A stretch of 54,338 nucleotides of DNA from a virus (Duplodnaviria > Caudoviricetes), in the IMG/VR virus record IMGVR_UViG_3300021062_000018, positions 1-54,338 of that record; one strand, 5' to 3'. The position numbers were made by a program, and so were the translations under genes. Each line of letters starts with the position of its first letter. The first letter of the stretch is position 1. Shown one piece after another: positions 17,210 to 33,098 of the stretch. Below the pieces are notes generated by a model. That model saw nothing but the letters and a program-made list of their open reading frames with translations. It was not told the DNA's origin and searched no databases.

Positions 17210-18574
17210 TCAGATCAGGTCGCTCTTCGCCCCGTTGCACCTTCGGCACAGGAGCTGCACGTTCTTCTCGTCGTTACTCCCGCCGCGGGCGTGCGGGATG
17301 ATGTGGTCGTACTCAAGGTAGTCGGTCGCCCCGCACTCGGCGCACTTGCCGCCGTACGTCTGCCAGACGCGTTGCCGCACGTGCCGCGGGATGTGCCGCG
17401 ACGGGCTCCCCTCGACCGCCTGCGTGATCGTCTGATTCGCCCGGCCGATCGCGACCTGGTAGATGAGCGGGCCCCGCTCCGGCTGGGTCTCGAAGTAGTA
17501 GCACCCCGCCCCCTTGGCCGCCGTCTGCACTTCCGCCACCCCGTGCCCGAGCAGCAGGTTCGCGACCCGCCGGTGCCCGAGGTCGACGCTCAGCAGCGGC
17601 GACACGAAGAGCAGGCGGTCGTCCGTGACGGCGAGGTGCCCGTCGAACTGCTCCTCCCGGTGCTCGCCCCGGCGGACGCGGACCCGCGTGTAGTAGCCGC
17701 GGCCCTGGTAGTGGACGATCTCCCCGCCCCGCAGCTGCAGCCCGCCGGCATCGACGGAGGGAAGCCGGCCTCGGCGGATCGCCGCCAGCTCGTTTACCTC
17801 GCGGATCTGGTTCTCGACGTAGGCCCGGTGTCCGCCGTAGATGCCGAACGTGTCCATGAGCCACCGCAGCCCATCGGCCTCCTGATCGGTTACCTCCCCG
17901 TCCGCCTTCGCGCCGGCGAGCGCCGCCTCGACCACCCGCCCCGCCTGTGGCGCGACAGCCGCCTGCACCTCGGCCTCGGTCATCCCGAGCGCGGCCGCCG
18001 TCGTCACCATCCGCTGCCAGTCGGTCGACGTGAACTGGCCCCGGCGGATCGCCGCCTCCATTGCCGACCGGAGCAGCTGCCCGCCCTCGTCTGCGAATGA
18101 CTGGCGGACCAGGTCGCGGACCGGGACGCCGATGCCCGCCGCGAGCTGCTCGAGCTCCGCCTTCTCGGCCGGAGAGACTTCCCCGTCCGCGACCGCCGCC
18201 CGCAGCGCCTCGCCGAACAGCCTGCCCCCGGTCTCGAGTTCGAGCCGGGACCGCCGCTCGTTAGACATCCCGAGCAGCTGGGCGATGAGGTTGAGCGACT
18301 GCCGCTCCTTCGCGTCGATCGACCCGCTCTGCCACGCCTTCGCCAGCGCGTTCAGGTAGACCCGGCCCGCAACGTCGCGGCGGTCCTGGTCCTCGACGCC
18401 GAGCTGGATGCAGCTCGCCTCGAAGTTGAACGCCCGCTTGTAAGCGGCGATGTGCTTCCACATCTCCACCGCCTGCGTCGCGATCCGCAGCTCGCGATTC
18501 GGGTCGAAGATCAGGTTGCTCGTCTCGAACAGGCGATTACCTGCCGCCCTCAGCCAGTTCACCACGCCCGCCAT
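17210..18574 (-). CDS. HNH endonuclease with N-terminal TerB-like repeats and a PH-like middle domain
   Basis: C-terminal CAEC...EYDHIIP...GGSN...NVQLLCRRCN; four repeats of the form A..DG.V...E; FDGHLAVTDDRLLF. Confidence 0.85.
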   Translation of the reverse strand: MAGVVNWLRAAGNRLFETSNLIFDPNRELRIATQAVEMWKHIAAYKRAFNFEASCIQLGVEDQDRRDVAGRVYLNALAKAWQSGSIDAKERQSLNLIAQLLGMSNERRSRLELETGGRLFGEALRAAVADGEVSPAEKAELEQLAAGIGVPVRDLVRQSFADEGGQLLRSAMEAAIRRGQFTSTDWQRMVTTAAALGMTEAEVQAAVAPQAGRVVEAALAGAKADGEVTDQEADGLRWLMDTFGIYGGHRAYVENQIREVNELAAIRRGRLPSVDAGGLQLRGGEIVHYQGRGYYTRVRVRRGEHREEQFDGHLAVTDDRLLFVSPLLSVDLGHRRVANLLLGHGVAEVQTAAKGAGCYYFETQPERGPLIYQVAIGRANQTITQAVEGSPSRHIPRHVRQRVWQTYGGKCAECGATDYLEYDHIIPHARGGSNDEKNVQLLCRRCNGAKSDLI

Positions 18575-20543: not shown

Positions 20544-20861
20544 GGGGCGGGAGTGTATCGGGCGGCGCGTTGCCGTCACGCCCGCGGTCGGTCGTGCGGG
20601 TGGGGGTCTAGGGGCCTGTTAATGTTTGTGCGGGGCTGCAGGGGTGAGGCACCGCTCATTCTGCACCACTCGTGCACCCACGGTGGATAACTTCGGGCCT
20701 TCAGCGGCCGCTGAACGATGCCACGGTGGAGACGCCGGAATTCGTTTTGAGTTCGGCCGATGTTCGGTGTAGTGTTCGGATGTCCGGCCGCCACAGAGGG
20801 CGACCGGGTCACGCCCAGGGATAGGGCTCCCCGCACAACCCGCGTCACGAAAGGACCGCCC

Positions 20862-21311
20862 ATGCGTTCCCCGCTCTCGGTGCGCCCGTCAGTCCCCGCA
20901 AAGCCCTGCTGCCCGTCCTGCCGGCGCCCGCTCGGCGGCCGGCCCCGGCTCGCCCGCCCCGTCCCCGTGCTCACGCTCGAGCAGCTCCGCGACGTCGCCG
21001 CCGGCAGCGGCCGCGTCGTCGAGACCGGGGCGGCCGTCGTCGACGTCGGCGACAACCACCAGGTCCGGGCGACGGTGACCATCGCCGTGCGGTTCGGCCC
21101 CGAGGTCGAGCGGTTCGTCGGCGAGGCGGTGCTCGACGAGGACTTCCAGCGGACGGACGTCTGGCACGACGACCCGGTCGGCGCGCTGTGCGGTGTCGCC
21201 GAGGCCCGGGCGATCCGGGCGGCGTTCCCCGGCCGGCTGCGGGGGACGGTGACCGTGTGGGAGGTCGGGGAGGCCGAGCCAGTCGCGTCGCGCGGCGGGA
21301 GGGCGGCGTGA
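20862..21311 (+). CDS. Truncated RecT/Bet-like paralogue 1
   Basis: LTLEQLRDVAAGSG...GEAVLDE...WHDDPVGALCGVAEARAIRAAFP; AAGGA RBS. Confidence 0.7.
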   Translation: MRSPLSVRPSVPAKPCCPSCRRPLGGRPRLARPVPVLTLEQLRDVAAGSGRVVETGAAVVDVGDNHQVRATVTIAVRFGPEVERFVGEAVLDEDFQRTDVWHDDPVGALCGVAEARAIRAAFPGRLRGTVTVWEVGEAEPVASRGGRAA

Positions 21312-21667
21312 GCGCCGTCGCGCTGCTCCGGGAGCTGCGGGCGGTCGTGCCGCCGGAGTGGCGGGAGCGGATCGACGCCGCGCTGCCGCCGCCGCGGAGC
21401 TTCGCCGCGTTCGCCGCTACGCACCCGGTCGACTGGCGGCTCAACAACTGCGACCTCGGCCGCTGCTTCGGCGTCGGCCGGATGGTCGTCGGGGCCGCCC
21501 GCCGGTCCCTTCGGGCGCCGGCCCCGACGTGGCCGCAGCGGCGGACGAAGGCGGCCGAGCGGCTCGAGGCGATCGACCGCCAGCGGGTGCTGGCGATGTT
21601 CTGGAAGACCGAACGGAAGCCAACAGGGAGAAGTGATGCTGCGTCCCTACCGAGTCGTGACGATTGA
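21308..21667 (+). CDS. Hypothetical, possible HTH protein
   Basis: GTGA coupling; segment NNCDLGRCFGVGRMVVGAARR. Confidence 0.55.
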   Translation: MSAVALLRELRAVVPPEWRERIDAALPPPRSFAAFAATHPVDWRLNNCDLGRCFGVGRMVVGAARRSLRAPAPTWPQRRTKAAERLEAIDRQRVLAMFWKTERKPTGRSDAASLPSRDD

Positions 21668-22067
21668 GAAGCTCCGCGAGATGGCCCGCGCCCGCGGCGA
21701 CACGTTCAAGCTGTTCCCGCTGAAGTACACCGCGGACGGCCTGCAGCCCGGGAAGGTGCGGGCCTCCATGCGCATCGAGCGGACGAAGCCGAACGGCCAC
21801 ACGTTCTTCTGCTACGGGTCGGCATGGCTCGACGAGAGCCGCGCGGACACCGCGCTGTGGCGGGACGACCCGCTAGCGGCGATGGCCGAGTGCGCCGAGG
21901 CCGACGCGTACCGGATGGCCTGTCCGGACTTCCTCGCGGCGATCTACAGCCAGAACGAGCCGGCCGAGGATTTCGAACGGATGGAGGAGGCGTGGGCGCT
22001 GCAGTTCGGCGTGCTGGCCGTGATCGACAGGCCGGCCGACCGCCCGACGCCGAAGTACCTGAACTGA
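21633..22067 (+). CDS. Truncated RecT/Bet-like paralogue 2
   Basis: VTIEKLREMARARG...GSAWLDE...WRDDPLAAMAECAEADAYRMACPDFLAAIYSQNE. Confidence 0.72.
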   Translation: MMLRPYRVVTIEKLREMARARGDTFKLFPLKYTADGLQPGKVRASMRIERTKPNGHTFFCYGSAWLDESRADTALWRDDPLAAMAECAEADAYRMACPDFLAAIYSQNEPAEDFERMEEAWALQFGVLAVIDRPADRPTPKYLN

Positions 22068-22071
22068 CGCC

Positions 22072-22476
22072 GTGCCGGACACCGCCCCCGTCACCCTGGC
22101 GACGCTCCGCGCCCTCGCCGAGGCGACCGGCGAGTTCGCCGGCGTCACGTTCTTCGAGGTCGACCCGGACGACTGGCCGGCCGGTGCGGTGTACCGGGAG
22201 GTCGCCGTCGCGTGGCGGCGGGCCGGCGCCCACGGCCGGGCCGTCGCGTTCCCCGGGACCGCGGCGGACGACGAGCTGCCGTGGACCGCGGGCGTCATGG
22301 ACGGCCACCGCCTGCTGAAGGAGTGGGCTGAGGCCCGGGCCCTCCGGAAAGCGTTCCCGGAGTGCCGGGGCCCGCTGCTCGAGGGCGAGCCGGAGCGGGT
22401 CGTTCGGGCGTGCCCGCCCGGGCCGATGCCGGTGCGCCGCCGGCGCGGCGTGTTCGTGGATCCGAACGAGCTGTAA
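22072..22476 (+). CDS. Truncated RecT/Bet-like paralogue 3
   Basis: VTLATLRALAEATGEFAG...RLLKEWAEARALRKAFPE. Confidence 0.72.
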   Translation: MPDTAPVTLATLRALAEATGEFAGVTFFEVDPDDWPAGAVYREVAVAWRRAGAHGRAVAFPGTAADDELPWTAGVMDGHRLLKEWAEARALRKAFPECRGPLLEGEPERVVRACPPGPMPVRRRRGVFVDPNEL

Positions 22477-22488
22477 CCAGGAGAGAGA

Positions 22489-23466
22489 ATGTCCGCACCC
22501 ATCTTCGCATCGGTCGACGGCGCCCCGCTGCCCCTGCTCCCGCGTAACGCGCTCGGCGTGGAGCGGAAGCCGGACGGCGCGTCGGTCCTGTCCCTCGAGC
22601 AGGCCGCAGAGCGGTTCAAGCTGCCCGGCGACGTCCTTCGGAAGCTGTACCTGGCCAATCTGACCGAGCACGCCGAGGCCGGCGGCCGGCCGCTGAGCGA
22701 CGACCCCGACGAGGCCGAGCGGCTGCGGGAGCTGCACCGCAAGGCGTACCCGCAGCTGAAGCCGGTGGAGTTCGCCGGGCTCGTCGACTTCGCGCGGCGG
22801 CTCGGGCTCGACCCGTTCAAGAAGCACGTCTACCCGCAGATCCGGACCGTCAACGGGCGGGTCGGGTACGAGTGGCGGCTCCGGCTGAGCGGCATGAAGG
22901 TCGTGGTCCGGGCGACCGGCGACCACATCGAGGTCTGCGGCCCGCTCTACACCTACACGGAGGAGCGGTACCCGCTGCGGTGCACGATGACCGGCACCCG
23001 GACGAGCCGGTCGGGGCAGAAGTACACGCTGACGGTCAGCGCGGCGTGGGCCGAGCACGCGCGGCCGACCGAGTGGTACGACCGCTCGCCGGAGACGATG
23101 CTGGCCAAGTGCTGCGAGGCGAAGCTGCTCCGCGGGCTGTTCCCTGACGAGCTCGGCGACGTCTACGCGGAGGAGGAGGGGGCGACGCTCGACCTGCCGA
23201 CGGGCGGGGCGCTGCCGCCGGCGCAGGACACCGACCCGCAGCGGCGGAGGCCGTGGCCGAAGACCTCGATGGAGTTCCACCAGGCCCTGCACGACTGCCA
23301 ATTGAGGGAGGCGCCGAAGCGGAAGGCGCTGATCGTGCAGTTTCGCCAGGACCTCGGCGACCGGCTCGGCGACGAGGAGTTCTACCGGGCGGTGCTGGAG
23401 CGTGTGTACGCGGACCCGGCGAGGTACGGGGCGCGGCTGCCGGAGGCGGAGGCGGAGGCGGGGTGA
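22489..23466 (+). CDS. RecT/Bet family single-strand annealing protein (full length)
   Basis: RLGLDPFKKHVY and WYDRSPETMLAKCCEAKLLRGLFPDELGDVYAEEE. Confidence 0.82.
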   Translation: MSAPIFASVDGAPLPLLPRNALGVERKPDGASVLSLEQAAERFKLPGDVLRKLYLANLTEHAEAGGRPLSDDPDEAERLRELHRKAYPQLKPVEFAGLVDFARRLGLDPFKKHVYPQIRTVNGRVGYEWRLRLSGMKVVVRATGDHIEVCGPLYTYTEERYPLRCTMTGTRTSRSGQKYTLTVSAAWAEHARPTEWYDRSPETMLAKCCEAKLLRGLFPDELGDVYAEEEGATLDLPTGGALPPAQDTDPQRRRPWPKTSMEFHQALHDCQLREAPKRKALIVQFRQDLGDRLGDEEFYRAVLERVYADPARYGARLPEAEAEAG

Positions 23467-23568
23467 GGGGCGAGCAACTTTCAGTACCCGGGCACTCGCG
23501 GTGAATCCGGCAATGCTCCTAATTGCGGAACTGCAATACCGGTATTCATACCGTAAGCGGTAATCGAC

Positions 23569-24288
23569 TTAGGTCAACCCATAGCAGATTTTGCGGCACC
23601 CGGGTGTCATGGTGTTAGTAATGATGTGGCGATCCTCGGCGGTGAACTTGTGGAAGTGGTCCTTGTGAAAGATCGCGAGCACGAAGTTGGTTGCCTCCGC
23701 GCATTTCTCGACGGCGAGCGTGTGGAGTTCAAAGGTCGACCTGTCGTACCGTACTTCCGCCACAGCCCGACGGGTTTCGAGATCCGTTACCCGTCGCCCG
23801 TGCACGCCGGCGGAGAGCTCGTCGTACAGCGTCCGTAGCCGGTGCACCGCATCAAACTTTTTCTCTGCCTCGGCGATCAGCGGGTGCTCACCCGCGTACT
23901 CGAGCAGCTCGTCGACGCCGACGTACCACTTCCCGCGATCGTTCATACGCCGGAACTCGATGGGGTGGTCGGCGAAGTAAACGTGCCTCAGCACGTTCTC
24001 GACCACGCCGCGGATCAGCAGCTTCGTCGTCTTCCCGAAGCCGATCATCGCCTGTGGCAATACCTGAAGGGAGTCGGACGCGATTTCCTCGACGAACCAT
24101 TTGGCGTGCTCTGGCATCTTCGGGAGCCGGAACCGCCACAGGATCAAGCTATATGTCGCCCGGTGCATCCGCTTGGCGATTCCCGCGTCGTCGGCGGGGA
24201 ATCGCTCGGGCACGATCCCTCGCTCCGCCAGGTGCGTCATCACCCCCTGGAAGTCAGCGGCGACCGTTGGGATAGCACGCTTGGACAT
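23569..24288 (-). CDS. HEPN-like protein
   Basis: All-helical; LIRGVVENVLR and LYDELSAGVHG match the R..(L/V)E ... Y..LS..VH pattern; TGATG coupling. Confidence 0.6.
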   Translation of the reverse strand: MSKRAIPTVAADFQGVMTHLAERGIVPERFPADDAGIAKRMHRATYSLILWRFRLPKMPEHAKWFVEEIASDSLQVLPQAMIGFGKTTKLLIRGVVENVLRHVYFADHPIEFRRMNDRGKWYVGVDELLEYAGEHPLIAEAEKKFDAVHRLRTLYDELSAGVHGRRVTDLETRRAVAEVRYDRSTFELHTLAVEKCAEATNFVLAIFHKDHFHKFTAEDRHIITNTMTPGCRKICYGLT

Positions 24289-24824
24289 CAGAGCTTCGTT
24301 CCCTTGATGATCCGCTCCCACCTAGAGAAGAAGTCGCGCCGGTCTGCCGCCCGATTCGTGTCGCGCGACATGGCTTCCCTCATCGACCGCTCGAACGCGT
24401 CCCGGGTGCCCGGGTCCAGCGTTTCCAAGTATTCGATGATCCGCGCGGCGATGTCACCGCGCGACATCTTCCGGAACCGCGTGCGGCTCATGTTCGGCAG
24501 GATGCTGGCCGCGAAGGTGATCAGATCTGGATTGGACGGGAACAGCCGCTTCTGCCGCAGCAGGTCGAAGAGGTGCATCGACTCGCCGGATCCAGGCTTC
24601 CGGCCGGACTTGCCCCGAGGAGGCTCGGGCGAGAGTGGTTCCGCCTCGGACTCGGCGGCCTGCGCCAGCCGCAGGTAGGCGTCGATGACCGGGATCAGTG
24701 GAGGGGCCGAGACGAACGCGGTTTCGCGGAACCGCTCCAGGTCCTCTTTGGAATAGGACGCTGGCACGCCCAGTGCCTTTTGGGCGAACGCCAGAAACGC
24801 ATGATGTCGCCGGTTCTCCGCCAA
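24288..24824 (-). CDS. Hypothetical helical protein (second gene of the ParA operon; fused to ParA in this assembly)
   Basis: TTG start with GGAG RBS just after an out-of-frame TAG that looks like the native ParA stop. Confidence 0.6.
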   Translation of the reverse strand: MAENRRHHAFLAFAQKALGVPASYSKEDLERFRETAFVSAPPLIPVIDAYLRLAQAAESEAEPLSPEPPRGKSGRKPGSGESMHLFDLLRQKRLFPSNPDLITFAASILPNMSRTRFRKMSRGDIAARIIEYLETLDPGTRDAFERSMREAMSRDTNRAADRRDFFSRWERIIKGTKL

Positions 24825-24826
24825 CG

Positions 24827-25691
24827 CTACGCTCCGCCCGTCCGGGTCCAAAACTCTTCCACTATCGACTGCATCTCCTTCGCCACTCGACCATGGCTTG
24901 TACTTAAAGATGGGCTGGTGGTGCTCAACCGACTCCGCGACGTGCGTCGAGACGGAGAGGTGGCTCTGGAACATCTCCTCGCCGTGGTTCGCCCGCAGGG
25001 TGTCCATCACCTCGTTCATGCGCGGCACGTTCGCGCGGACGAGCGTGAACACCATTCCGATCTTCTCCAGGCGAATCCCGTACCGCTCCATGCAGTCGTC
25101 CAGCCACCGCTCGAGCAGCGGCAGCCCGACGATCGACAGAGGGTCCGGCTTGATCGGGACGATGTACTTCTGGCTGGCGAGTACGGCCGCCTGGGAGAAG
25201 AGGCTGACGGTCGGCGGGCAGTCGATGATGACGTAGTCGTACCCCCTCGCCCGCTCGTTGATGAAGTTGTTGAGCATGCGCTCCGTGCCGCGCGGCGCGG
25301 CCTCGGAGTCGATCAGCTTCAGCGTGGACGGGATGATGTCGAGCCGCCCGCCCGGCCCCTTGCCCGACGTTCCGGCGTAGATCGGGATGGTGAAGGCCGG
25401 CAGCGACATCCGGCTGCGGTTCACCGGCTTGGCGAAGCCGGTGACGGTGTTTATGGATCCGTCCCGGCGCGGAATCAGGACGTCGAGGAGACTGCCTTTG
25501 CTGCGGTCGCCCATGTGCGCGATGTAGGCGTCGTCTTCTACGAGATACTGGGTCGCGTTGAACTGCGGGTCCGCATCCACCAGTAGCACCTGCTTGTGGT
25601 GGAAGTGGGCGAGGCCATAGGCGACGTTGACGGCCAACGTCGTCTTGGCTACCCCGCCCTTCATGTTGATGAACGAAATCACCTGCCCCAT
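24827..25691 (-). CDS. ParA/Soj-family ATPase with a frameshift near 24887
   Basis: Motifs NMKGGVAKTT, VDADPQFNAT and IIDCPP; the typical terminal helix VAKEMQSIVEEFW lies in a shifted frame. Confidence 0.88.
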
Positions 25692-25746
25692 GCTCGCCTC
25701 CCGACGTACCACCGCCTGACTCACGCCGTCCTCCGCCCCTCACCGC

Positions 25747-27497: not shown

Positions 27498-28682
27498 ATG
27501 AGCAGCGGGACCCAACAGACCGCGATCGTGCCGGCCGGGCAGACGACGGCGCTCGCCGTCGCGTCCGAGGCCGACGCGTTCATGCCGGTCATGTCGATCG
27601 AGCAGGCCGTCGGCCGGCGGAACCTCGTCGTCCAGTTCGCGCAGAAGGTGATGGTGAAGGGTCTCGACTACGGGGCGATCCCCGGGACCGGGGAGAAGCC
27701 GACGCTCCTGAAGCCGGGGGCTGAGAAGCTCTGCAGCCTGTTCGGGCTCGTCCCCGACTTCCAGGACTACCGGGTCACGGAGGACTGGGAGAACGGCTTC
27801 TTCTTCTACGCGTACCGCTGCGTCGTCAGCCGCAACGGCAAGCCGATCGGCAGCGGGATCGGGTCCTGCAACAGCCGGGAGAAGAAGTACCGCCGGGACT
27901 CCCGCGCGTGCCCGGAGTGCGGGAAGCCGGCGATCAAGCGGAGCAAGTACCCCCCGCGGGACGACCCGCAGGCCGAGCCGGGCTGGTACTGCTTCGGCAA
28001 GGCCGGCGGGTGCGGGGCCAACTTCGCCGCGGACGACCCGGCGATCGTCGACCAGTCGGCGAAGGTCGACCCGAACGAGGTCGCCGACCTCGTGAACACG
28101 ATCCAGAAGATGGCGCAGAAGCGGGCGCTGGTCGCCGCCGTCCTGGTCGCCACCAGCGCGTCGGAGTTCTTCACCCAGGACGTGGAGGACATGGGGATCA
28201 TCGACGCCGAGGTTGAGCCGCCGCGGGGCCGGACGCCGGCCGCCCACGCCCCGGTCGACGACGAGCCGCAGCAGACCCGCCAGGAGTGGTTCCTCGAGCA
28301 GTGGGACGCGCTGGCCCGCGAGCGCGGGCTGAACGGCGCGGGCCGCGGCGTGCTGCCGGTGCTGGCGAAGAAGGAGAAGCTCCCGACCGACATCAACGCC
28401 TGGACGGACCAGCAGTGCGACGCGGTGCTCAACCGCCTGCGGAACGCGACGGACGAGCAGATCGCCGCGTTGAAGAAGCCGGCGGCGAAGGCACCGGCCA
28501 AGGCCTCGGCCGCCCAGGTCGAAAGGATCGGCGAGCTGCTCGGCGACGTGGCCGACCCGGGCGCCGCGCTGGCGGACGTCCTGCGGGCGCACAAGGTCGA
28601 GAAGCTCGACGACCTGACGGCCGACGCGGCTGTGAAGTTGATCCAGTCCCTCGAAGCCGAGCCGGCCGCCGCGGGGGCGTGA
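27498..28682 (+). CDS. Phage recombination/annealing protein (tentatively Rad52/ERF-like) with Zn-ribbon insert
   Basis: Motifs DYGAIPG, KPTLLKPGAEK, NTIQKMAQKRALVAAV and FTQDVED; insert CPEC...WYC...GC. Confidence 0.6.
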   Translation: MSSGTQQTAIVPAGQTTALAVASEADAFMPVMSIEQAVGRRNLVVQFAQKVMVKGLDYGAIPGTGEKPTLLKPGAEKLCSLFGLVPDFQDYRVTEDWENGFFFYAYRCVVSRNGKPIGSGIGSCNSREKKYRRDSRACPECGKPAIKRSKYPPRDDPQAEPGWYCFGKAGGCGANFAADDPAIVDQSAKVDPNEVADLVNTIQKMAQKRALVAAVLVATSASEFFTQDVEDMGIIDAEVEPPRGRTPAAHAPVDDEPQQTRQEWFLEQWDALARERGLNGAGRGVLPVLAKKEKLPTDINAWTDQQCDAVLNRLRNATDEQIAALKKPAAKAPAKASAAQVERIGELLGDVADPGAALADVLRAHKVEKLDDLTADAAVKLIQSLEAEPAAAGA

Positions 28683-28689
28683 CGGACTG

Positions 28690-29060
28690 ATTTCTAACGG
28701 AGGGGCGCTGAACCTGCGGTGACGGTGTGACCCGCAGCGGAGCCCCGCACGACCCCTGCCCCGGTTGCACCGACTGAGGCAGGGTAGGCCGGCGGATGAG
28801 CCGGGGATCCGGGTGGGCCCGTCGGAAACGGCGGCCCCACCCATGAGGCGAGAGCCTCGCGAGGGATAGAGCCGCGTGCGGTGGGCAAGCCAAGCCGCAC
28901 GAAACGACCGCAAGCGTCCGGCGAAGCGGCGTGCAGGTGACTACCGAGGAGCCGGAGTGCGGGCGGGTCGGGCGGAGACGCCCGGCCCTCCCTTCGCGGC
29001 GCGTGCCGCACGGGGCGACGGGCGCAGCCATTGACCCGGCCCGGCGTCGCCCCGGTTGAA
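28690..29060 (+). ncRNA. Candidate structured non-coding RNA (about 370 nt)
   Basis: Gap in an otherwise tightly coupled operon, tiled by at least eight hairpins, several with GNRA loops; no convincing ORF. Confidence 0.5.
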
Positions 29061-29082
29061 CAACCGACGGCAGGAGGCCCCC

Positions 29083-29427
29083 ATGCTGGTGCTCGCGAGG
29101 CAGCGTGATGAGACGATCGAGATCGGCGACCGCGCGCAGACGTCTGTGATCCTCAGCCCGGCCGACGAGGCGGCGCTGAAGGGGTGCACCGACCCGGCCC
29201 TGCAGGACCTCGCGGCGCGGCTGCTCGACCCGACGAACCGCGGCGTCGTCCTCGCGACCGTCGTCGACATCCGCGGGGACAAGGTCCGGATCGGCCTAGC
29301 CGGGCCGCGCGGCGTGGCGTTCAACCGCCGCGAGGTGGCCGAGTCGATCCGCCGCGAGGGCCGGCACGTGCAGCTGCAGCCGAACCGCGTCGTGAAGCAC
29401 GGCGTCCCCCTGGAGGCAGGCCGATGA
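29083..29427 (+). CDS. csrA: CsrA/RsmA-like translational regulator with an internal insertion of about 38 aa
   Basis: MLVLARQRDETIEIGD ... VVDIRGDKVRIGLAGPRGVAFNRREVAESI. Confidence 0.8.
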   Translation: MLVLARQRDETIEIGDRAQTSVILSPADEAALKGCTDPALQDLAARLLDPTNRGVVLATVVDIRGDKVRIGLAGPRGVAFNRREVAESIRREGRHVQLQPNRVVKHGVPLEAGR

Positions 29428-32128: not shown

Positions 32129-32547
32129 AGCTTCTCGACCTCATCCTGTCCCGCGTCGAGTGGTTCGACATCGCCAACGCCGCCGGCGACGTGTTCATGC
32201 GCCGCTACAAGCTGCTGCGGACGCCGCTCGGGAACGTCTACCTGCACCACATCCGGCGGAGCGACGAGGACCGGTGCCTGCACGACCACCCGTGGCCGTT
32301 CGTCACCCTGATTCTGGCCGGCGGCTATCGGGAGGTTCTGCCGGGCGGCCGGCGGTGGCGGGAGCCCGGATCGTTCCTCTCCCGCCGCGCGACGTTCGCA
32401 CACCGCATCGAGGTTGACCGCCCCGCGTGGTCGCTGGTGTTCGTCGGACCCAAGTGCCGCGCGTGGGGATTCTTCACCCTCGCCGGCTGGCGGCAGTTCC
32501 TCCCCGGCCAAGCTCGGCCCATCTGCGAAACGGGGGTGGCCGCGTGA
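32125..32547 (+). CDS. Cupin-fold phage protein
   Basis: YLHH...SD..R.LHDHPW...GGYRE...HRIE. Confidence 0.75.
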   Translation: MKLLDLILSRVEWFDIANAAGDVFMRRYKLLRTPLGNVYLHHIRRSDEDRCLHDHPWPFVTLILAGGYREVLPGGRRWREPGSFLSRRATFAHRIEVDRPAWSLVFVGPKCRAWGFFTLAGWRQFLPGQARPICETGVAA

Positions 32548-33098
32548 AAACCTCGCCGACCGCCTCCGCCGCCGCCCCCAAGCCCTACCCGCAGTACGCG
32601 AACGTCCGCCTCTGCGGCCGCCTCTACGGCGTCGTCACCCGCGGGACCACCCGCGGCGACCTCGTCACGTTCACGATCGCCGTCCAGAAGAACCCGGCCG
32701 ACAAGGCGGCCACCCTGTACCCGTGCCAGGCCTGGGACGCGCTGGCCGACGCGGTGCAGAAGGAGGGGCGGCACCTCCGGTGGGCCGTCGTCGAGGGCTC
32801 CCTCGAGCTGAACCAGTGGGTGAACGGCCGCGAGATGTTCGTCCGGGCCAAGGCCGTGCGGTTCGCGCCCGACTCGCCGGCCACGCCGCCGCCGAAGCCC
32901 GCCCCCGTGAAGGTCACCCAGCCGGAGCTGCCGCTCGGCGACGGGTGCCCCGGGACGATCGGCCCCAACAAGCCCAAGGCCGGCGCGCCCGAGAAGCCGC
33001 GGCCGCCGCCGCGGGGCGGGAGCCTGTTCGACCGTCCCCCGCTCGAGGCGCTGCCGCCGGCGGGGACGCACTACACGCCCGACCAGATCCCGTTCTGA
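32544..33098 (+). CDS. ssb: Single-stranded DNA-binding protein (divergent)
   Basis: Motifs NVRLCGRL, FTIAV, CQAW and VEGSL; Pro-rich linker; C-terminal DQIPF. Confidence 0.75.
   Translation: MKTSPTASAAAPKPYPQYANVRLCGRLYGVVTRGTTRGDLVTFTIAVQKNPADKAATLYPCQAWDALADAVQKEGRHLRWAVVEGSLELNQWVNGREMFVRAKAVRFAPDSPATPPPKPAPVKVTQPELPLGDGCPGTIGPNKPKAGAPEKPRPPPRGGSLFDRPPLEALPPAGTHYTPDQIPF

Follow-up and report, generated by a model that had tools for sequence, protein, structure and literature searches.

Annealases of the RecT/Red-beta family are regarded as homo-oligomers encoded by a single gene, and recombineering tools use them as their working part. This raises the question of why a phage should carry four RecT-type genes close together, three of them about half the usual length. 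The window, that is the whole stretch of DNA that was analysed (54,338 nucleotides), comes from a record that represents a complete 54-kb soil phage of 72% GC; contigs compared with this record were identical to it, with zero variants. Positions 20862-23466 hold five densely packed genes on the + strand, ORF1, ORFx, ORF2, ORF3 and ORF4, which form one tightly coupled rightward gene set. ORF1 (20862..21311, + strand, 149 aa), a short RecT-core paralogue of subtype A, begins as previously assumed with the ATG at 20862, behind GAAAGGA. ORFx (21308..21667, + strand, 119 aa, GTG start), an unrelated gene within the array with an in-frame third-position GC of 0.97-1.0, overlaps the ORF1 stop with its start and the ORF2 start with its end. 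ORF2 (21633..22067, + strand, 144 aa, or 143 aa if the ATG at 21636 is used) is a short paralogue of subtype B. It is separated by 4 nt from ORF3 (22072..22476, + strand, 134 aa), the third and most diverged short paralogue, recognised by its HMM match and its third-position GC. A gap of 12 nt, with AGGAG ahead of the next gene, leads to ORF4 (22489..23466, + strand, 325 aa), a full-length annealase of the RecT/Red-beta family.

The third-position GC of ORF1 (0.91), ORF2 (0.94), ORF3 (0.96) and ORF4 (0.97) is that expected for genes at 72% GC. ORF1-3 resemble the neighbouring genes in this respect and contain neither internal stops nor frameshifts. The coding signal thus agrees with the description, given in an earlier note, of four co-oriented RecT-type ORFs that are intact rather than decaying, although that description overlooked the fifth gene, ORFx. 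To the left, an intergenic region (20580..20861, no strand assigned), the probable start of the rightward operon, separates ORF1 from leftward small genes ending at 20579. Coding third-position GC is absent from each of its frames and a simple promoter scan returned no sigma-70-like site; a candidate promoter upstream of ORF1 can only be inferred there.

Two split-gene interpretations of the array were rejected. ORFx is not the N-terminal half of a split RecT, as the full-length RecT HMM fails to match it even at E 100; it has no match in Pfam, PHROGs, PADLOC or NCBIfam, and tblastn against 50,697 phage records returned nothing. Read-through of the ORF1 stop into ORF2, the two lying in one frame that is open from 21312, was discarded because third-position GC marks another frame as the coding one there.

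The short proteins are strongly diverged from one another and from ORF4 (28-35% identity), and their common descent is established by several comparisons. Results of blastp link ORF1 to ORF2 (E 1.4e-11, 34% over 112 aa) and residues 9-111 of ORF2 to residues 131-232 of ORF4 (E 2.5e-7); ORF3 is tied to ORF2 by 93 colinear residues (E 0.02) and reaches only 0.12 against ORF4. HMMs built without the window sequences score 58-118 bits for ORF1, 48-100 for ORF2 and 34-44 for ORF3. Alignment of the short-form profile with the full-length profile by hhalign gives a probability of 99.3% (E 6.9e-21), and a search with the short-form profile retrieves 1128 proteins at E<=0.001, mainly full-length forms of 250-350 aa. 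Together, blastp, hhalign and these HMMs bear out the shared Bet core that had been read from the sequence. Reference models detect it more faintly: ORF2 matches Pfam RecT over profile positions 138-193 at E 0.0035 and 17.4 bits, under the 24-bit cut-off, and for ORF1 and ORF3 the Pfam RecT search gave no match; against bet_lambda (TIGR01913), ORF2 gives E 3.2e-5 and ORF1 E 0.0044, below the cut-off of that model.

ORF1-3 correspond to the C-terminal lobe alone of the RecT/Red-beta fold, approximately residues 76-177 of Red-beta, and comprise the long DNA-groove helix preceded by a helix and three strands. Even when whole stop-to-stop frames are offered, they align to positions 137-242 only of the 335-position full-length HMM, the N-terminal lobe being absent from the upstream open frame as well; in ORF3 just 9 residues of this frame precede the HMM match. 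The truncation point is identical across all short proteins. The N-terminus of ORF1 carries in addition a tail of about 35 aa that is basic and rich in proline. The N-terminal part is kept by ORF4 alone, as had been proposed, Pfam RecT 17-55 and 146-187 both matching this protein.

ORF4 is the sole ORF of the array above the Pfam cut-off (PF03837, E 7.8e-10, 39.1 bits, cut-off 24). It also matches RecT-like families of PHROGs and can be aligned over its whole length with P0079 (42.5%), P0057 and P0030; about 80 aa of conserved sequence extend its N-terminus, and it has a C-terminal domain. A profile built from its clade matches Red-beta (7ujl_A) over residues 7-179 with an E value of 5.4e-6. 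ORF4 is a member of the RecT/Red-beta family, which includes lambda Bet, Rac RecT and LiRecT. ORF1-3 have in common with this family the C-terminal lobe and its W...AEAxALRxAFP helix, but in them the N-terminal lobe with its hairpin (about Red-beta 1-75) is missing, E, G, Q or L stands at a near-invariant Lys, and the length is 134-149 aa as against 250-350 aa.

The arrangement of the genes is equally unusual, several copies standing beside a full-length gene in a phage from which the partner exonuclease is absent. None of 255 other RecT loci holds a second RecT-core ORF (in 177 of these loci the upstream flank spans 2 kb or more, and in 144 both flanks do), and the array is therefore not a product of chance. 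RecT proteins usually have a partner 5′–3′ exonuclease of the RecE, lambda Exo or YqaJ type, which family membership does not require. The earlier remark that no exonuclease gene is adjacent can be extended to the whole 54-kb record, in which PF09588 (YqaJ) and PF12705 (PDDEXK_1) have no match at E<=1. No description of truncated or tandem RecT paralogues was found in the limited literature searched.

An AF2 model of ORF2 (pTM 0.68), in which a strand and a helix are followed by three strands and a helix, bears on whether a short copy can adopt the RecT/Bet fold. In a Foldseek comparison it matches 28 BFVD models at E<=0.001, the best at 3.7e-5, and those that carry a name are RecT/Bet; in the Atlas the model reaches a TM of 0.62 to a RecT cluster, RecT accounting for 28 of the 30 nearest clusters. 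For ORF2, the RecT/Rad52-type fold is thereby supported through BFVD and the Atlas, whereas matches in the PDB are middling. The outcome that the earlier note had named as refuting, short ORFs that fail to model as RecT/Bet, thus did not arise for this copy. The model superposes on residues 76-167 of Red-beta 7ujl_A (Z 5.1, r.m.s.d. 2.4) and also resembles Sak of phage 80-alpha (Z 6.1), RAD52 (Z 6.0), dsRNA-binding domains (Z 6.2-6.3) and a Gp77 chain (Z 5.8), the last four at Z values that are background for this aligner. A PDB sequence search with alignment A1 yielded chance talin matches only. A predicted complex of ORF1 (residues 30-149) with ORF2 (residues 1-128) scored 0.00 in two runs made without controls, which speaks neither for nor against an interaction.

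Short and full-length forms also differ at the conserved lysine of the 'ML-x-K' motif. Of 137 full-length hits, 135 have K in this column, ORF4 among them, whereas none of the 18 proteins of the short family does; in these the column is occupied by E (13), G (3), Q (1) or L (1). In the alignment of the ORF4 clade profile with 7ujl_A the column falls on Red-beta H153/K154, which contact and hold the template strand (PMC9512822). The positions aligned with R161 and W143, likewise DNA contacts of Red-beta, are largely retained among proteins under 200 aa (R in 21/21, W in 20/21), ORF3 having M in place of the conserved W. The copies had been called charge-reversed: the term holds for single positions, with the Lys column mostly E and its basic residue lost as originally noticed, but not for the domain as a whole, the median net charge of the core being -3 in short forms and -2 in full-length ones (Mann-Whitney p 0.14), and global charge reversal was rejected. 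One protein, P0050, combines the K-to-E change with an N-terminal segment, and the two traits are therefore separable. The residues of the Red-beta inter-subunit salt bridges show no clear conservation in short forms; the D80 equivalent is acidic in about 8 of 14 sequences, judged by eye in alignment A3.

On sequence evidence, ORF1 and ORF2 group with about 15 further short proteins in an old, separate clade, and the short proteins make up a small, hitherto undescribed family. In the tree, 16 of the 18 short proteins fall into one group (SH-aLRT 90), ORF1 and ORF2 lie far from ORF4, and ORF3 forms a long branch of uncertain placement among full-length forms. The origin of the array by recent local duplication of ORF4 was rejected on account of the age and separateness of the clade to which ORF1 and ORF2 belong. 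Members found elsewhere are of equal length and share a conserved signature of their own. The clade occurs in Phycisphaerae-associated and soil contigs, its named members coming only from Phycisphaerae metagenome-assembled genomes (MAGs); one of these, a Humisphaera sp. MAG, encodes an orthologue of ORF1 (P0003/P0151) that is 78% identical.

The clade consists of two subtypes, A and B, which co-occur in all four cases that allowed two members to be located together: ORF1 with ORF2 in the present record, P0004 with P0009, both on contigs of 11176 bases from the same sources, P0031 with P0007 (locus tags JWO31_553/554), and P0016 with P0152 (locus tags JWO31_334/335). Synteny in relatives was judged by locus tags and contig sizes only. 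By this measure, the conserved array that was sought in relatives is found in part: relatives exist and are paired as A and B, but a full-length RecT could be placed next to the short forms in the present record only, and none of 17 full-length clusters checked lies on a contig of the same size as a short-form contig. Searches for related loci with alignments A4, A5 and A6 gave ordinary single full-length RecT loci only. A word-index search returned ORF2 itself alone, and 7 proteins with alignment A3 and 23 with A4, without useful locus tags. Scanning viral contigs with ORF4 and with ORF2 as single proteins yielded no match, the E-type helix expressed as a degenerate DNA pattern occurred in 0 stretches of viral contigs, and ORF1 had no tblastn match in 50,697 phage records.

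What might such proteins do? In LiRecT, the bulk of the subunit interface is contributed by the C-terminal lobes, the duplex is clamped by the N-terminal lobe, and the hairpin with helices makes one wall of the DNA groove (PMC9772228). Given these roles of the two lobes and the contacts of Red-beta H153/K154, the short proteins are by analogy probably unable to anneal DNA alone and yet able to pack beside RecT-type subunits. We tentatively propose, with somewhat less than even confidence, that ORF1-3 are annealing-incompetent accessory subunits ('pseudo-annealases') that pack against RecT oligomers. They would co-assemble with one another and with ORF4, and would govern how ORF4 oligomers nucleate, how long they grow or how stable they are. 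The homology and extent of the short forms, the modelled fold of ORF2, tight gene coupling, the coding signal, A and B pairing in 4/4 cases, the family signature and the rarity of the array (0/255) are features that argue for such a role. Against it, a full-length RecT could be placed next to the short genes in this record only, and ORF1 and ORF2 lack close kinship with ORF4, so that co-evolution is not indicated. Furthermore, an identity of 28-35% suits arms-race proteins at least equally well, the salt-bridge residues of Red-beta lack clear conservation among the short forms, and P0050 has the K-to-E change yet retains an N-terminal segment.

Shorter paralogues that accompany a recombinase are familiar from other systems: yeast Rad59, a shorter paralogue accompanying Rad52, is a cofactor that retains the entire Rad52 N-terminal domain, whereas ORF1-3 keep half of the core. 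XRCC2 and RadB are shorter Rad51 paralogues in which part of the DNA-handling apparatus is missing and which serve as cofactors (PMC2896510, Lopes et al. 2010). The likeness to the Rad52/Rad59 and Rad51/XRCC2 or RadB sets is one of gene arrangement only. If half-length paralogues do partner RecT, they would be a first sign of dedicated non-annealing subunits for phage annealases, as for eukaryotic Rad52 and Rad51, and if they cap or tune the oligomer, they would offer a handle on the control of annealing by oligomer length, which is debated for RAD52 too. A more specific and rather improbable form of the proposal is that A and B act as face-specific caps: each would keep one packing face of the RecT C-terminal lobe, and the two would therefore jointly close both ends of the oligomer. 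Capping of this kind would fix the size of the RecT oligomer and prevent the large rings or filaments that host sensors recognise, giving the phage a paralogue-based means of both regulating and hiding its annealase.

The main rival to an accessory-subunit role is that the short proteins are anti-defence decoys, which would mimic the surface of the RecT core and absorb or block host recombinase sensors without annealing; we consider it unlikely. Its rationale is that host systems sense the fold class to which the array belongs. Phage recombinases often trigger host immunity: they are targeted by defence systems of several unrelated kinds (PMC11846896), SaPI2 Stl2 responds to Sak/Erf/Red-beta-type proteins, and RAZR is activated by rings of the putative recombinase Gp77 (PMC13017515). 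Gp77 is also a structural neighbour of the ORF2 model, although its Z value of 5.8 lies within the background of the search. Loss of a DNA-contact lysine from a fold otherwise kept, strong divergence among several differing copies, and the position of the array first in an early-looking operon are all common in counter-defence genes and would fit decoys, but PADLOC has no match in ORF1-4 and the stable pairing of A and B in distant relatives resembles a fixed complex more than a set of fast turnover. Stl2 and RAZR are, moreover, host sensors, whereas the array consists of truncated recombinase copies encoded by the phage, which those papers do not describe. Decoys would constitute a new type of counter-defence against recombinase-sensing immunity.

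It is likewise doubtful that the short proteins, singly or as A/B heteromers, bind nucleic acids independently of RecT, whether they act as a minimal annealase, protect ssDNA or ends, or bind dsRNA or duplexes. What they retain is the core common to Rad52 and Sak, the W and R aligned with Red-beta DNA contacts are present, A and B pairs occur on short contigs to which a RecT could not be assigned, and neither a Gam-like nor an exonuclease partner is present in the phage. The resemblance of the ORF2 model to Sak, RAD52 and dsRNA-binding domains points the same way, but at Z values that are background for the aligner. However, the hairpin and helices that wall the LiRecT DNA groove are missing from the short proteins, a glutamate stands in place of the phosphate-binding lysine, and the phage already has a RecT, an SSB and a second candidate annealase. 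Finally, functionless leftovers of decaying recT tandem duplications, which the truncation, the missing conserved residues and the long branch of ORF3 might suggest, are very improbable and close to refuted by the absence of internal stops and frameshifts, a third-position GC (0.91-0.96) like that of neighbouring genes, starts with ribosome-binding sites or stop-start coupling, the 78% identical orthologue of ORF1, the length and signature shared by about 15 clade members, and the common truncation point. The immediate reach of the short family is limited, since it is small and its hosts are uncultured.

The second candidate annealase is encoded by ORF5 (27498..28682, + strand, 394 aa), a context gene outside the array that the earlier note had called annealase-like. 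This designation has weak support at the level of fold, the top Foldseek PDB matches of its AF2 model (pLDDT 86.5) being RAD52 at E 5.5e-3, but kinship with RecT in sequence is not borne out (hhalign probability 0.1%). ORF5 is a weak candidate, from its predicted structure, for a second single-strand annealing protein of the phage, which would thus encode two candidate annealases unrelated in sequence. No RecT core is present in the five closest viral records that carry an ORF5 relative. ORF5 belongs to phrog_10048 (E 3.2e-46), also matches GemA (E 1.1e-5), and has a predicted Rad52-like fold with a zinc-ribbon insert as well as a C-terminus resembling GemA; it is widespread as a single gene, its relatives being encoded in 161 viral stretches.

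The virus record is complete (54,338 bases; CheckV completeness 100%), has a GC content of 72% and yielded no tRNA genes, and its genuine genes are marked by a third-codon-position GC of 0.85–0.99. The array at 20862–23466 consists of five + strand genes in operon-like packing: three half-length RecT-core paralogues, referred to here as short forms, ORF1 (20862–21311, 149 aa), ORF2 (21633–22067, 144 aa) and ORF3 (22072–22476, 134 aa); the full-length RecT, ORF4 (22489–23466, 325 aa); and an unrelated gene, ORFx (21308–21667, 119 aa). The four RecT-core ORFs described in the earlier note are present, but ORFx, with a third-position GC of 0.97–1.0, had been overlooked. The stop of ORF1 overlaps the GTG start of ORFx, the end of ORFx overlaps the start of ORF2, 4 bases separate ORF2 from ORF3, and 12 bases separate ORF3 from ORF4, which is preceded by AGGAG. 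Upstream of ORF1 lies a 280-base non-coding stretch and, beyond it, small opposite-strand genes. The coding signal of ORFx, wedged between ORF1 and ORF2 and overlapping both, is very strong; none of the libraries searched gave a match to it, nor did 50,697 phage records. ORF1 and ORF2 share a reading frame that stays open from the ORF1 stop to the ORF2 stop (21312–22064, + strand, 251 codons). This frame was rejected as coding and probably just reflects the high GC content, since third-position GC marks another frame between the two genes. Phage contigs from two soil-metagenome runs are identical over 20700–23600, with no variants and a very high word depth (about 820 and 223); the record may derive from both of these runs.

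The proposed RecT paralogy of ORF1–4 is borne out by several lines of comparison. ORF4 matches both halves of the Pfam RecT model (E 7.8e-10, 39.1 bits, cut-off 24), ORF2 scores 17.4 bits, under that cut-off, and the model matches neither ORF1 nor ORF3. Pairwise blastp links ORF1 to ORF2 (E 1.4e-11), ORF2 to ORF4 (E 2.5e-7, ORF2 residues 9–111 on ORF4 131–232) and ORF2 to ORF3 (E 0.02). On three HMMs from which all window sequences were left out, ORF1 reaches 58–118 bits, ORF2 48–100 and ORF3 34–44, and hhalign of 15 short forms against 10 full-length forms gives a probability of 99.3% (E 6.9e-21, 104 columns). A profile of ORF1–3 searched against 1.84 billion representative proteins returned 1128 matches at E<=0.001, the majority of them 250–350 aa long with the match beginning near residue 65–80. 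The AF2 model of ORF2 (pLDDT 67, pTM 0.68), with the order strand, helix, three strands, long helix, has 28 matches at E<=0.001 among viral RecT/Bet models (best 3.7e-5); in the Atlas it meets a RecT cluster at TM 0.62, and 28 of its 30 nearest clusters are RecT. Its matches to solved structures are middling (Sak Z 6.1, RAD52 Z 6.0, Red-beta 7ujl_A Z 5.1, the last with an rmsd of 2.4 for model residues 8–100 on chain residues 76–167), and dsRNA-binding domains match equally high (Z 6.3). For this reason the assignment is based on sequence, by which ORF1–3 are members of the RecT family, with a consistent fold.

The N-terminal truncation of the short forms is confirmed in stop-to-stop frames: even over these whole frames, the match of the full-length profile to ORF1–3 is confined to profile positions 137–242, and the frame of ORF3 has just 9 residues ahead of the match. 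ORFx was rejected as the missing N-terminal half, as the full-length RecT profile does not match it. The ORF4-clade profile aligns with lambda Red-beta over residues 7–179 (E 5.4e-6), an alignment that places the start of the short forms at about Red-beta residue 76–77.

Full-length relatives carry the groove-helix motif W-x-K-M-P-x-x-M-L-x-K-C-A-E-A-x-A-L-R-K-A-F-P, in which the lysine ahead of C-A-E-A is present in 135 of 137 full-length hits and in none of 18 short-family proteins (13 E, 3 G, 1 Q, 1 L). Three further proteins of <200 aa retain it; these show the full-length motif along its whole extent and are probably fragments. Other positions also separate full-length from short forms: the M of K-M-P (74% versus 0%), the M of M-L (80% versus 0%), the K of R-K-A-F-P (80% versus 6%) and the G of t-i-D-G-l (77% versus 0%), while E-E-M becomes D-E-P. 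Common to both groups are R14, W75, A-E-A, R93, F96 and E108 (ORF2 numbering). The charge reversal noted earlier is thus local, at single positions, and does not extend across the domain, the core net charge being no different between short and full-length forms (median −3 versus −2, p 0.14).

The Red-beta report (PMC9512822) assigns template-strand binding to R128, W143, H153, K154 and R161, places K36, K61, K69 and K132 near the incoming strand, and includes E121, E125, K148, R149, the R161–D80 pair, D68, K61 and K36 among subunit contacts. In the ORF4-clade alignment with Red-beta, the family lysine aligns with H153, beside K154, the kept W with W143 and the kept R with R161. In the LiRecT report (PMC9772228), helices alpha2 and alpha3 form the groove floor, and the beta1–beta2 hairpin and an insertion form its walls. 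Most of the contact area between LiRecT subunits comes from the C-terminal lobes, whereas the N-terminal lobes act as a clamp on the duplex. By homology with these solved relatives, the short forms would retain the lobe making most subunit contacts and would be without one groove wall and one phosphate-binding lysine.

The short architecture occurs in about 15 complete proteins of 95–183 aa among the best 150 hits, forming 13 clusters at 90% identity. A tree was built from 18 short proteins together with 33 full-length ones, the latter being the ORF4-like and best-ranked among the 137 full-length hits, with the other 104 omitted; in it, 16 of the 18 short forms fall in one group (SH-aLRT support 90). 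Judged from their sequences, the short forms are a separate family and not a local duplication. ORF1 groups with P0003/P0151 (78% identity, support 100) and ORF2 with P0009 and P0010; ORF3 and P0050 are long branches among the full-length forms, their placement unsure. P0050 (183 aa, on a 1735-base contig) has the Lys-to-Glu signature and retains an N-terminal segment, and is a possible intermediate between full-length and short forms. The only taxon names on short forms are those of 'Humisphaera sp.' and 'Phycisphaerales bacterium' MAGs, so the phage host is probably a soil member of Phycisphaerae.

Within the short clade, a group A (ORF1, P0004, P0006, P0011, P0016, P0031, P0017, P0028 and P0005) can be distinguished from a set of branches B (ORF2, P0009 and P0010, plus P0007 and P0152). 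Two short forms could be assigned to one locus in four cases, and each of these pairs joins an A with a B: ORF1 with ORF2 in the window; P0031 with P0007 (locus tags JWO31_553 and 554, 2861-base contig); P0016 with P0152 (JWO31_334 and 335, 5613-base contig); and P0004 with P0009, each on an 11176-base contig from the same sources, presumably a shared one. Adjacency of short forms to a full-length RecT is so far shown by this record alone. Each of 255 other RecT loci (80 genomes, 95 viral contigs and 80 metagenomes), picked for likeness to ORF4 or the short forms and none >36% identical to ORF4, contains a single ORF that the short-form HMM matches at E<=0.001; at least 2 kb was covered upstream in 177 and on both sides in 144. 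A limited literature search found no report of truncated or tandem RecT paralogues, and Pfam, PHROGs, NCBIfam and PADLOC hold no model for the short forms. Shortness alone is not unique to them, since the Atlas lists clusters of short RecT-domain proteins (126 and 168 aa) in other bacteria. The novelty lies in four features occurring together: a shared truncation point, the Lys-to-Glu signature, A/B pairing and a location next to a full-length RecT.

We tentatively favour a reading in which ORF1–3 would be accessory, annealing-incompetent subunits packing with RecT-type subunits, the A+B pair of short forms being the conserved unit and ORF4 its client in this phage. A weak point of this reading is that the divergence of the copies suits a structural partnership no better than an arms race. 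Anti-defence decoys are a less likely explanation, with the rationale that host systems are described as sensing recombinase oligomers. A role as independent nucleic-acid-binding proteins is about as likely as decoys. Decay products are very improbable, and the remaining probability falls to some explanation beyond these four.

No YqaJ or PDDEXK_1 nuclease was found in the whole record, which agrees with the reported lack of an adjacent exonuclease. Downstream of the array, the − strand stretch 23569–25724 encodes a 250-aa protein of unknown function and a ParA-like ATPase of 478 aa, about 200 of which form a C-terminal extension; lying between the two recombination blocks with a GC of 0.65 versus 0.72, the stretch could represent either a partition module or an acquired island. 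The second replication/recombination block holds ORF5, a CsrA-like gene (29056–29427, + strand, Pfam CsrA E 9.7e-11) just upstream of an integrase, a RecU-like resolvase, an SSB (32427–33098) and a primase. ORF5 (27498–28682, + strand) combines a GemA-like C-terminus with an N-terminal domain of the wide phrog_10048 family, which has no assigned function and occurs in 161 viral stretches. The high-confidence model of this domain (pLDDT 86.5; helix, helix, three strands, zinc-ribbon insert, long helix) has a Rad52-like core and finds its best solved matches in RAD52 (E 5.5e-3). The domain shows no profile similarity to RecT. A separate annealase-like gene is thus plausible at the level of the predicted fold only, and the phrog_10048 domain may be an unrecognised annealase family. 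In Geobacillus virus E2 the ORF5 homologue directly follows a Gp157-like gene, and no RecT core was found in the five closest viral records with an ORF5 relative, two of them at least 90% complete. Elsewhere in the record, 17210–18574 (− strand) encodes a 454-aa protein with TerB-like repeats and a C-terminal HNH nuclease, matching the PADLOC candidate system PDC-S48 (E 3.9e-14).
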